A stretch of 40,203 bases of DNA, taken from sequence record NZ_OW849084.1; one strand, 5' to 3'. This document shows positions 35,901-38,900 of the stretch, in pieces. The position numbers were made by a program. The DNA comes from a plasmid. Numbering within the stretch: position 1 is the stretch's first letter; every line of letters starts with the position of its first letter.

Positions 35901-38900
35901 CTCGAACGCGGGCTGGCGCGACCGGCTGTACAGCGTGGCCTGCGAATTCCTGCGAGGCCTGCATGACCATTATCGCCGCATATTATTACAACGAAGGTAA
36001 GCGAGTCCGTGAAATCAGGCTCGATGAGCACGTCGAACTAAACGAGAATCGCTCGGGCTTCTGCTGGATCGCGCTTAGCGAGCCCACCGCAGACGAACTC
36101 AGCGCGATCCAGACGACGTATAACCTCCATCCTTTGGCGATCGACAACGCCATGCACCCGCTGTGCCCGCCCAAGCTCGAGGTCTACAACGATGAGTTGT
36201 ACGTCGTCGCCCAGACCGCCGAGCTGGTCGGCGACCGGATCAGCTACGGCAAGATGGCGATCTTCACCGGTCACAATCACCTTATCACCGTGCGGCACGG
36301 CAATGCCGGAGCGCTGGGCAAACTTCGGGAGCAACTCGAGGCATCGCCGACGCAGTTCGGCAAGGGTGTCGACTATGTGCTGCACGCGATCTTGCACCGA
36401 GTGGTCGACCAGTATCTGCCCATCTTCGAAATGATCGAGGACGACGTCCTGGCGATGGAGCGACGGTCGCTGCACGATTTCCTCGGGCCAGAAGAGGTGG
36501 CGCGAATCTTCGAACTAAGGTCCGAACTCACGCGGTTCAAGCGCACGCTCGGGGCTATGGCCGAGCTGGTGCGAAAGCTCGTTCGCGGCCACTTTCCCTG
36601 CCTCAGCGCCGAAATGACACCATATTTCCACGACGTCGCGGACCATGTCCACCGCGTGCAGTCCATGGTCGACGGCCTCCTGCTTGTCCTGTCCACGGTC
36701 TTCGAGGCCAGCAGCCTTCTGGAAGCGCAAAGGATCGGTGTGGTCACTCGCCAGCTCGCGGCCTGGGCGGCGATCTTGGCGGTCCCGACGGCGATCGCCG
36801 GAATATATGGCATGAACTTCAAGCACATGCCGGAACTGGACACGCCATATGGCTACTTCGTCGTGCTCGGAGTGATAGCGGTGTTCTGCCTTCTCCTGTT
36901 CATGCGCTTCAAGAAGGCCAAGTGGCTATGAGTAACGCACTTCGCGAGCTTCTCCGTCCGCCGAGTCACAGCGCGCTTTGTGCGCGAGCGTGTCCAATCC
37001 AGTTCAAGATGAAGGTGCTTCCATGACCTCCCAGGTGACCGACGTTCTAGAAGCAGTCCAGTCATTCATCGCCAAAGGCTATGACCGCGAATACCGCGTC
37101 AAGGACGGCAATCTCGTCGATCTCGAACTAGGGTCAACCCTCGATGCATGCAGCATTCGCGTCGATGCGGCGTTGCGCCTCGAGAGCGGGGACGACGGCG
37201 AAGATGCCTCCAACATCTACGCGATCACCGATCCGGCGACAGAGCATAAAGGCCTGTTGATCGACGCCTTCGACGTGTTCCACGAAATCTGCCCCCGCGA
37301 CTTGTCCGAGCGCCTTGTGGCGCATCGGGAAACAGCACCGGCAGGTGACCAGGACGCGCCGAGCAAGCACGGACTACGGAAAGTCTACAAGAGCGAGTTT
37401 CACAGCGATCCCGAGCGTTACGTTCTGCGCGAGGGCTTTCCAGACTTCCCGCCATGCCCTTTCGGCCAATCCTTCAGCATCCTCGGCTTCGATACCGCCG
37501 AGCAGGAATATGTCTGGCTCGTCACGAGCATCATTCGAGATCCTCGGCTGATCAGGGTTCCATACCAGGGCGAAGACGTCATCAGCGACGAATAGCGGTG
37601 TCGCTTAGCCGGAAAGGCTGGCCTTCCTGGCCCACACATCTGCAGGCTGAACTTTAAGAACATCGAAAATTAGGAGGTGATTATGGACTGGAACAAGGAC
37701 CACATACGAGAAACTATGCTCTTGCTGGAGACAGCAGCGTTGCACAGCGCTCGCGAAAACTACCTGGACCGAGATTCACCAGAATCGAGCGATGCTGACC
37801 CTGCCAGGCTACTTCCGCCCGACGAAGCTGTGGGATTTGTTGGTGATCTACAAGGGAGAGCTGATTGCTGCCATCGAGCTGAAAAGCCAGGTAGGTCCCT
37901 CGTTCGGTAACAACTTTAACAATCGAACAGAGGAATCTATCGGGACGGCCCATGATCTTTGGACGGCCTTTCGTGAAGAGGCGTTCGGCAAGCAGCCACG
38001 CCCTTTCGTCGGCTGGCTGATGATGGTCGAAGACGCGCCGGAGTCCCGCAGGCCGGTGCGTGACTCATCGCCGCACTTCCCGGTCTTCGAGGAGTTCAAG
38101 GGGGCGTCGTATCTCACGCGGTATGACTTGCTGTGTCAGCGATTGGTGCAGGAGCAGCTCTACACGACCGCTGCTGTCATTGCGGCAGAGCGCAGTGCGG
38201 TGAATACCGGCGACTTCACGGAGCAGTCGTCGATGACCAGCCTCAAGACATTCGTGTCTGCTTTGGCTGGGCACATCGCCGCAGAGGCGGCACGACTGGG
38301 CTGATTGGCCGCTTTCGATCATTCTGGCTTGGAGACCGGACGATGATGACAACCACAACTGAAGCGCTTTCAGAGGTTTTACGCGGGTATGGACGCGCCG
38401 ATGAAACTGCATTGGCATCACTGCTGGAGGTCAGCGACTGGGAGCGCATCGCCCGGCAGGAGCTTGAGCGCCGGGCTACCAGCATCGTGCAGGCGCTGGA
38501 TGATGCGACCCTTGAGGCCATCGCAGCGGGCACGCTCGACATGCTGGCCATGTGCCGACAGGTGGCCGACGAGATCCACCAGGCCGCCTAAGCCCTCCCC
38601 TGCCCTGCCACCGAACCCCGCCGCGTGCGGGGTTTTTTATGACTTCAAATCCTCAAAAGGTGCATTTACTCAAATCCTCAATATGCTATACTGCGCTTGA
38701 GTAATTCCTTTTTTCCTCAAACGCTCAATAGCTCAAGGAGCGCATATGCAAGTCATTGCTGTACTGAACCAGAAGGGCGGGGCGGGTAAAACCACCATCG
38801 CCACCCACCTTGCCCGCGCCCTGCAACTCGACGGCGCAGACGTGTTGCTGGTTGATTCTGACCCGCAGGGCAGCGCCCGCGATTGGGCCGCCGTCCGCGA

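Follow-up and report, generated by a model that had tools for sequence, protein, structure and literature searches.

The PaeR7I restriction-modification (R-M) system was first found on a Pseudomonas aeruginosa plasmid, and its endonuclease, R.PaeR7I, has the specificity CTCGAG, with which the UniProt name agrees. Intact copies are carried by relatives of the plasmid considered here: in pRSB105 the genes are annotated paeR7IN, paeR7IM and paeR7IR, and in pEkFL23 (pEkFL23_IncU) the order is a recombinase, a 555-aa Eco57I-type methyltransferase, a 246-aa endonuclease, orf82 and parA. At least 80% of the module is kept in 22 PLSDB records. A second described arrangement is the LysR-msrB-msrA-GST-corA-orf190-orf149 operon of Alphaproteobacteria and of the Aeromonas IncU plasmid pFBAOT6; the gene order around corA recurs on Brevundimonas and Sphingomonas contigs, and in these contigs, as in pFBAOT6, an intact orf149 follows orf190. 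Additionally, for the plasmids p10265-KPC, pCOL-1, pCRE3-KPC and pWW14A-KPC2, the available portions of the papers give the gene set msrB-msrA-yfcG-corA-orf8 plus paeR7IR that is present here (PMC4785139, PMC7096625, PMC8421773), and paeR7IR is listed in the portions of two of these papers that describe the plasmid type (PMC7096625, PMC8421773).

The stretch of DNA analysed here, which we call the window (40,203 nucleotides of sequence record NZ_OW849084.1), comes from a p10265-KPC/pMHW-1-type IncP-6 blaKPC-2 plasmid. The interval between corA and the partition genes is 100% DNA-identical in pMHW-1 (RefSeq, NZ_CP091429) and in 19 other listed PLSDB records, and pCRE3-KPC's own PLSDB record is among the listed records with this full identity. 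An earlier note on this DNA, made from the sequence alone, had proposed that the interval holds an undescribed three-gene cluster built around a nuclease. The three co-directional reading frames on which that proposal was built are present between the end of corA (36931) and a hairpin (37023-37595, 37792-38304 and 38343-38591), with the small correction that the third encodes 82 rather than 83 residues. Each of the three has many conserved homologues, i.e. they are not chance reading frames. The features of the interval and its surroundings are as follows.

34125-37769: acquired msrB-msrA-GST-corA-orf190-orf149' operon fragment, 98.9% identical to pFBAOT6
35963-36931, plus strand: corA, Mg/Co transporter (as annotated by RefSeq in pMHW-1, an identical plasmid)
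37023-37595, plus strand: orf190 (WP_004099040), 190-aa conserved hypothetical protein, the next gene after corA
37673-37769, plus strand: start of orf149, with an AGGAGG Shine-Dalgarno sequence (37673-37678) and the first 29 codons (37683-37769)
37683-37910, plus strand: chimeric 75-codon ORF; in translation, orf149 supplies the first 29 codons and the paeR7IR remnant, read out of frame, the other 46
37769, no strand: recombination junction, a 1-nt overlap
37771-38304, plus strand: ΔpaeR7IR, codons 70-246 plus stop of an XhoI-family type II endonuclease gene, a 5'-truncated pseudogene
38343-38591, plus strand: orf82 (WP_033996218), small acidic five-helix protein of 82 aa, last gene of the resolvase-M-R-orf82 module
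38613-38641, plus strand: intrinsic-terminator-like hairpin (9-bp GC-rich stem) with U-tract, between orf82 and the parA promoter region
38665-38692: promoter-like site before parA
38746-40047, plus strand: parA-parB(ParG)-parC, the partition operon in the IncP-6 backbone, as annotated in pMHW-1 and pEkFL23

Two sources of DNA meet at position 37769

The left part of the interval (window positions 34125-37769) matches pFBAOT6 at the identity given above and the right part (37769-40203) is 99.8% identical to pEkFL23_IncU, with five DNA mismatches over this 2.4-kb stretch of backbone; both matches end at 37769, where a single C is common to the two sides. The junction was placed by a three-way alignment and by blastn end-points (L003..6870 / L002 6001..). 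We looked at the junction for IS ends, repeats and a target duplication and found none, and positions 36500-39000, scanned against Rfam at E<=1, gave no match. With a 241-bp probe spanning the junction, 21 PLSDB records gave matches covering 80% or more of the probe. Where a listed record matches a shorter piece, the match breaks at or short of 37769; most of these breaks, from either side, are at query position 120, three are at 111 and one is at 44. Among the plasmids listed with the chimeric junction there are at least seven genera of origin (Aeromonas, Escherichia, Citrobacter, Serratia, Enterobacter, Klebsiella and Morganella), and an identical junction in 21 records fits one ancestral event. 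We are highly confident that the interval is one illegitimate-recombination or deletion seam between acquired DNA and an IncP-6 backbone, and that the nuclease gene at this seam is a pseudogene.

What, then, of the frame discontinuity in front of the nuclease; is it a frameshift, real or introduced by sequencing, within a single gene that starts at the ATG at 37683? The strong ribosome-binding site and ATG do exist 109 nt upstream of the first methionine of the nuclease frame, and they open, as had been noticed, a different frame that overlaps the nuclease ORF, in this case for 75 codons to a stop at 37910. However, the 29 codons that follow this ATG are 100% aa-identical to residues 1-29 of pFBAOT6 WP_004099042, the unrelated 149-aa hypothetical protein orf149 (GreA/GreB C-terminal domain-like according to one source, which takes the name from cluster members), and contiguity with pFBAOT6 stops at 37769. 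Additionally, the true nuclease N-terminus (MALDLVDYEQ...HA, 69 residues) is absent from every frame of the window by tblastn, and 21 plasmids that were sequenced independently have the same junction. Together, the three-way alignment, the tblastn search and these 21 records refute a frameshift or sequencing error, a reading to which we assign practically no probability. In other words, what had been taken for either a frameshifted gene or one expressed from an internal methionine is a fusion junction, at which codon 29 of orf149 meets codon 70 of paeR7IR; resequencing would leave it as it is. The chimeric ORF that results has no credible match in Pfam, NCBIfam or PADLOC profile searches and is a by-product of the fusion.

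The paeR7IR remnant and its missing methylase

The nuclease assignment itself holds up well. The remnant is 100% aa-identical to residues 70-246 of the intact 246-aa pEkFL23 endonuclease and 96% identical to UniProt T2P7_PSEAI (R.PaeR7I). Its first in-frame methionine, at 37792, corresponds to residue 77 and opens an ORF of 170 aa, and a profile search with this ORF confirmed the XhoI/PaeR7I-type call (Pfam XhoI PF04555, E=8e-83 with a score of 277 bits, the cut-off being 25; PADLOC REase_II PDLC03540, E=1.4e-98, positions 76-245 of 247). Both motifs reported earlier, D-x13-E-L-K and FGNNFNNR, are indeed in the middle ORF, where the catalytic residues D91/E105/K107 are kept; the PD-(D/E)XK fold, with its catalytic D...(D/E)xK motif, is retained. 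The Met77 ORF covers profile positions 50-190 of the 191 in PF04555, whereas the intact homologue covers 1-190, so ∼49 of 191 positions are missing and the Met77 product does not contain a complete domain. The remnant carries no inactivating mutations, and the 170 codons from Met77 are uninterrupted. Judged from its sequence, it is a fragment of an XhoI/PaeR7I family member and not a functional member.

The rest of the system is gone. The earlier note had seen no methyltransferase next to the nuclease, and this observation extends to the whole 40-kb window, in which tblastn with the cognate 555-aa methyltransferase gave no match and no remnant; no other methyltransferase gene was found in the window, and none is annotated in the identical plasmid pMHW-1 either. 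A complete type II R-M system, which would have its cognate methyltransferase adjacent or elsewhere in the window, is therefore not present, and the suggestion that the nuclease is solitary and the remnant of a defence or addiction module was well founded. The plasmid contains six CTCGAG sites.

Is the remnant dead? A PDB sequence search with R.PaeR7I found no solved relative. In an AF2 model of a full-length homologue (pTM 0.84), the lost part holds helices 8-32, 36-41 and 48-66, the last of which immediately precedes the first core strand. Inspection of the sequence upstream of Met77 revealed no Shine-Dalgarno sequence. With its three N-terminal helices gone, with no Shine-Dalgarno sequence before Met77, with six CTCGAG sites and no methyltransferase to protect them, and with a PGAP label (RefSeq, pMHW-1) of pseudogene, 'incomplete; missing N-terminus', the 177-codon remnant is very probably non-functional, as far as sequence and model can indicate. 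Its 100% aa identity to the intact copy means that decay cannot be demonstrated from sequence.

This same identity could be turned around. The D-x13-ExK motif is undamaged, as are the last 170 residues; restriction genes have orf82 as a conserved companion; and the arrangement is stably inherited in ∼21 sequenced plasmids, whose listed members come from at least seven genera. Might a truncated nuclease be made from 37792 and still nick or bind DNA, be toxic or act in exclusion, perhaps with orf82 as a check on it, so that the two form a decayed addiction or exclusion module next to par? We consider this very unlikely. The internal-Met product would be without all three N-terminal helices and the corresponding Pfam positions, Met77 would have to be used while the strongly initiated 75-codon ORF runs across it in another frame, and any kept specificity would be self-destructive because the six CTCGAG sites are unprotected. 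Moreover, zero aa divergence together with only five mismatches in 2.4 kb indicates that the conservation reflects recency, not selection, and orf82 accompanies complete, active-looking R-M systems as well, so it is not peculiar to a truncated toxin.

Separate origins of orf190 and orf82

The genes on either side of the remnant have different affiliations. On the left, orf190 (the 'orf8' or 'orfX' of the literature) has no credible match in Pfam, NCBIfam or PADLOC profile searches, and its context is informative: there are 390 homologues, the best 120 of which are 72-100% identical, and in five of the five loci fetched for three homologues the gene lies directly downstream of LysR-msrB-msrA-GST-corA. 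These loci come from genome assemblies of Brevundimonas and Sphingomonas, on contigs of 166-259 kb, and from two metagenomic contigs. In pFBAOT6, orf190 likewise comes directly after corA, i.e. its position is conserved in independent genomes. We infer that orf190 works with the msr/corA operon and is unrelated to the nuclease.

On the right, orf82 lies 3' of the endonuclease gene in pEkFL23, pRSB105, pVF2, pPA033, Thauera and Comamonas, and its relatives also come directly after the last gene of BsuBI/PstI-type systems and of a system made up of a C5-methyltransferase and a DUF2357/PDDEXK_7 gene, so that with the XhoI/PaeR7I type three unrelated plasmid-borne kinds of restriction system are involved; in the loci with flanking sequence, a serine recombinase is near the orf82 members. 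The family is narrow and strongly conserved (153 proteins in 5.8 billion). A confident structure model (pLDDT 93) has five helices and found no fold match among solved structures, and Pfam, NCBIfam and PADLOC searches with the protein gave no credible match. What might orf82 do? It could be an undescribed restriction-system accessory, for example a restriction modulator in plasmid establishment or a factor in recombinase-mediated R-M cassette exchange, a speculative role that we regard as rather improbable; alternatively, the gene is perhaps no more than a conserved flank. Downstream of orf82, the hairpin at 38613-38641 is a plausible terminator, with an RNA fold of -15.3 kcal/mol and a modest z of only -1.64; a consensus terminator scan did not list it.

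These affiliations bear directly on whether there is a real, undescribed defence or addiction operon here, made up of orf190, the nuclease gene and orf82. The trio is co-directional and closely spaced, with a terminator-like hairpin after the third ORF. However, no lineage other than that of the present plasmid has the three side by side; elsewhere orf190 is always with msrBA-GST-corA and orf82 always after a restriction gene, and neither matches any PADLOC model or any of the defence and toxin-antitoxin family profiles that were searched. The partner synteny check that had been suggested thus gives a clear answer, as orf190 and orf82 are not kept together beside nuclease homologues: orf82 follows endonuclease genes and orf190 follows corA. 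A three-gene defence operon is contradicted by these separate syntenies, and we see virtually no likelihood of it. The cluster instead divides into orf190, which belongs to the acquired msr operon, and the nuclease remnant with orf82, which belong to the IncP-6 R-M module. Nor is that module undescribed; it is named and intact, with an adjacent methyltransferase, in pRSB105 and pEkFL23, which is one of the outcomes that the earlier note had given as refuting its proposal, the remnant already carries a RefSeq pseudogene mark, and the papers, in their available portions, list paeR7IR (PMC7096625, PMC8421773).

Proposed assembly of the interval and comparison with known systems

The history that best explains these observations is as follows. 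The ancestral IncP-6 backbone would have carried, beside parABC, a complete stability/defence module consisting of a serine recombinase (paeR7IN), an N6-adenine methyltransferase (paeR7IM), the PaeR7I endonuclease (paeR7IR) and orf82. Acquired DNA, with a piece of an oxidative-stress operon (msrB-msrA-GST-corA-orf190-orf149') at its end, would then have been joined to this backbone. In the joining, whether by one deletion or in several steps and with or without a part played by ISEc33 or ISApu, the backbone would have lost the recombinase, the methylase and 69 codons from the start of the endonuclease gene, so that codon 29 of orf149 now runs, out of frame, into codon 70 of paeR7IR. Since then, the remnant would have been carried along passively, placed as it is between acquired DNA that is under selection and the essential par/rep genes, and orf82, the surviving backbone gene, may still be transcribed by read-through that ends at the putative terminator before parA.

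The practical consequences are minor. The nuclease region is a plasmid-assembly scar that RefSeq already flags, and a false lead is removed; orf82 and its family are the sole residual lead of the interval, a small one for research on R-M accessory genes. With the PaeR7I system lost, this widely spread KPC lineage would set no CTCGAG restriction barrier and no R-M addiction on its hosts.

How does the locus compare with its closest relatives? Relative to the LysR-msrB-msrA-GST-corA-orf190-orf149 operon of Alphaproteobacteria and pFBAOT6, the order is the same from msrB to codon 29 of orf149, but the present plasmid is without the LysR regulator and without orf149 past that codon; at its left boundary (34125), the fragment adjoins a truncated IS630-like transposase remnant, called ΔISEc33 in the literature. 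We read the msr-corA cluster as an acquired operon fragment since it is absent from the two examined IncP-6 plasmids with intact R-M (pEkFL23 and pRSB105) and present in pFBAOT6 and in Brevundimonas and Sphingomonas genome contigs. This reading is in conflict with the published p10265-KPC-type descriptions, which, in their available portions, count the msr-corA cluster and paeR7IR among 'backbone/maintenance genes'; these maintenance genes would be a defunct restriction system and an acquired operon fragment. The same portions mention neither the 5' truncation of paeR7IR nor the end of the cluster inside orf149, and the seam at 37769 is placed here. Finally, the present plasmid shares with the intact PaeR7I system (paeR7IN-paeR7IM-paeR7IR of pRSB105 and pEkFL23_IncU) the downstream context of orf82 and parA, but it has no part of the methyltransferase gene and no recombinase gene, and its endonuclease gene lacks codons 1-69; what it carries is a leftover of that system, not a working version of it.

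The interval between corA and parA

At 37023-38591 an acquired operon fragment meets the IncP-6 backbone, and at this seam lies a paeR7IR pseudogene truncated at its 5' end. The sequence features described in the earlier note are accurate by ORF listing and direct reading, and the middle ORF does contain both D-x13-E-L-K and FGNNFNNR.

Features of the interval and its left flank
33350-34024 (region given up to 34124), minus strand: transposase remnant, 224-aa IS630-like ORF, HTH domains only
37023-37595, plus strand: orf190, 190 aa, between corA and parA
37673-37678, plus strand: AGGAGG, 5' of the ATG at 37683
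37683 (ATG) to 37910, plus strand: chimeric 75-codon ORF, in a different frame, overlapping the nuclease frame
37792-38304, plus strand: middle ORF (nuclease remnant), 170 aa
38343-38591, plus strand: orf82, 82 aa
about 38613-38641, plus strand: GC-rich hairpin with U-run 3' of orf82; fold -15.3 kcal/mol, z only -1.64; missed by a consensus terminator scan

What, then, is the discontinuity in the nuclease frame? It is a recombination junction, and not the frameshift or internal start that had been proposed; in a three-way alignment of the window, pFBAOT6 and pEkFL23, homology switches from pFBAOT6-type to IncP-6 DNA at one shared C, position 37769. By local blastn, pFBAOT6 (Aeromonas, IncU) matches 34125-37769 at 98.9% and pEkFL23_IncU (IncP-6) matches 37769-40203 at 99.8%; in megablast against PLSDB, many records match 36900-37769 alone and others 37769-38700 alone. 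Repeats and IS ends were looked for at the junction, and none is present. When a 241-bp probe was centred on the junction, 21 records covered at least 80% of it; the listed records with shorter matches end at the junction base or short of it (the break is at query position 120 in most, coming from either side, at 111 in three and at 44 in one), a pattern that fits a single ancestral event, clonally inherited.

By megablast, 20 PLSDB plasmids match the interval at 100% identity, among them E. coli pMHW-1 (40,232 bp, IncP-6, blaKPC-2) and others from Aeromonas, Citrobacter, Serratia, Enterobacter, Klebsiella and Morganella. The pMHW-1 annotation runs from repA, a Tn3-family mer transposon, mob genes and a blaKPC-2/ISKpn27/ISApu1/ISApu2/Tn3 mosaic to msrB-msrA-GST-corA with one hypothetical gene; the PLSDB gene table then has a gap, after which come a second hypothetical gene and parA-parG-parC. 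This order is that of the published p10265-KPC type (PMC4785139). The same annotation (offset 29) includes further addiction-type genes: following the relaxase gene, BrnT/BrnA with a MazE-like antitoxin (window about 21217-22194) and an RHH/PIN pair within the mer transposon (about 2829-3478).

The paeR7IR remnant

From 37769 rightward, the window corresponds in pEkFL23 to the 3' portion of a gene for a 246-aa 'type-2 restriction endonuclease'. Ahead of that gene are those for a 195-aa serine recombinase and a 555-aa Eco57I-type N6-adenine methyltransferase, and behind it come the 82-aa ORF (orf82) and parA-parG-parC. On pRSB105 these genes bear the names paeR7IN, paeR7IM and paeR7IR, and UniRef lists the endonuclease sequence as 'Type II restriction enzyme PaeR7I, RepID=T2P7_PSEAI'. 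The 177 residues retained in the window match the pEkFL23 enzyme (its residues 70-246) at 100% identity and the pRSB105 sequence at 96%; Pfam XhoI (E=8e-83) is matched at profile positions 50-190 of 191 only, versus 1-190 for the intact protein, and the PADLOC match agrees in its partial coverage. The XhoI/PaeR7I family call was therefore right, as was the suggestion of a module remnant, pEkFL23 and pRSB105 having the intact module of recombinase, methyltransferase and full-length endonuclease. The remnant is, however, already known and not undescribed: on the identical plasmid, RefSeq PGAP gives precisely these coordinates as a pseudogene ('type-2 restriction endonuclease', 'incomplete', 'partial in the middle of a contig', 'missing N-terminus'), and both 'msrB-msrA-yfcG-corA-orf8' and 'paeR7IR' are named in passages of papers on plasmids of this family (PMC7096625, PMC8421773).

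Could the remnant still act? In an AlphaFold2 model (mean pLDDT 80, pTM 0.84) of a full-length homologue that shares 92% identity with R.PaeR7I, N-terminal helices span 8-32, 36-41 and 48-66 and the first strand begins at residue 70; all three helices are deleted in the remnant, and a start at Met77, its first in-frame Met (37792), also loses the strand. On direct reading, no Shine-Dalgarno precedes Met77 in the upstream sequence CACCAGAATCGAGCG-ATG, and the well-initiated chimeric ORF reads across this region in another frame. CTCGAG is the PaeR7I/XhoI site. Because the plasmid has six such sites (19451, 23369, 29561, 36176, 36335 and 37179, the last within orf190) and the window no methylase, an enzyme that still had this specificity would cleave the plasmid itself and the chromosome of every host. 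From the lost helices, the missing Shine-Dalgarno and the unprotected sites, we infer that the remnant is non-functional; that it does anything at all is highly improbable. Its lack of amino-acid changes relative to the intact copy reflects recency rather than selection; the backbone stretch has five DNA mismatches across 2.4 kb. Six sites in the window compare with 12.9 expected from shuffles (at least six in 100 of 100), and the IncP-6 backbone holds one of them (19451, relaxase gene), acquired DNA the other five; the low count could be a trace of site avoidance, left over from a time when an active PaeR7I system was present on the backbone.

orf82 and its neighbours

The context of orf82 is the single unexpected result of the analysis. 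This acidic protein has no match in the profile libraries searched (Pfam, NCBIfam, PADLOC), its small family numbers 153 proteins at E<=1e-3, and conservation is strong: 10 positions are invariant and 27 nearly invariant among 41 sequences; it is modelled as a confident five-helix domain (pLDDT 93) for which no structural neighbour was found. Wherever the upstream sequence is long enough, which leaves out loci cut by a contig end or another truncation, orf82 lies directly 3' of a restriction system's last gene (orf82 loci: window 38343-38591, L002, L004, L006, L007, L009, L013, L020 and L023-L032). Three unrelated kinds of system are represented: PaeR7I/XhoI-type (pEkFL23, pRSB105, pVF2, pPA033, Thauera, Comamonas), an Eco57I-type methyltransferase with a BsuBI/PstI-family endonuclease, and a C5-methyltransferase with a 494-aa protein and a DUF2357/PDDEXK_7 protein. 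The context may signify a functional link to restriction, or merely the conserved flank of an exchangeable restriction-modification cassette.

On non-IncP-6 plasmids and Thauera/Comamonas contigs, the next two genes after orf82 encode a 274-aa hypothetical protein and an Abi_C-domain ('abortive infection family') protein of roughly 271 aa (the pair at 7428-9075 in L006 and 7428-9084 in L007 and L004, and also in L009, L013 and L020). The pair follows the resolvase-M-R-orf82 block after a gap of 3 nt, an arrangement suggestive of a small defence island. In IncP-6 plasmids, homology to these loci stops precisely with the stop codon of orf82.

Wherever flanking sequence exists, a serine recombinase gene is no more than a few kilobases from orf82. 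In pRSB105, Tn402 tniA/tniB are directly 5' of paeR7IN (L004 2179-4657), in keeping with the known preference of Tn402/Tn5053-family transposons for res sites; this position suggests that paeR7IN is the multimer-resolution resolvase of the plasmid rather than an invertase serving the restriction-modification system.

The msr-corA fragment and its relatives

The pFBAOT6 order is LysR, msrB, msrA, GST, corA, a 190-aa hypothetical, a 149-aa hypothetical, RidA and further genes. The ATG at 37683, with its strong RBS, starts the 149-aa gene (a family that one source labels GreA/GreB C-terminal domain-containing); window codons 1-29 are 100% identical, and homology ends there. Homologues of orf190 number 390, the best 120 of which are 72-100% identical to it and have no Pfam domain. 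In all five loci fetched, from three homologues (Brevundimonas and Sphingomonas genome-assembly contigs and three Logan read-assembly contigs), orf190 is directly 3' of LysR-msrB-msrA-GST-corA, with the 149-aa gene next in the Brevundimonas and Sphingomonas loci. Given this placement, orf190 is the post-corA gene of a conserved oxidative-stress operon, unconnected with the nuclease, and the proposed three-gene cluster dissolves, the nuclease and orf82 belonging to the IncP-6 backbone side.

Homology to pFBAOT6 starts at 34125, 20 nt 5' of msrB, where the fragment abuts, at the msrB upstream region, the transposase remnant named ΔISEc33 in the literature (PMC4785139). Passages in the plasmid papers class msrB-msrA-GST-corA-orf190 as 'backbone/maintenance genes' (PMC4785139, PMC7096625, PMC8421773); the cluster is absent from both IncP-6 plasmids examined with an intact restriction-modification module (pEkFL23, pRSB105). 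Compared with pEkFL23, the window is missing endonuclease residues 1-69, methylase and recombinase, of which tblastn finds no trace, and compared with the LysR-regulated operon of pFBAOT6 and the Brevundimonas and Sphingomonas contigs, the cluster at 34125-37769 is itself a fragment, which lacks the LysR regulator and ends within orf149.
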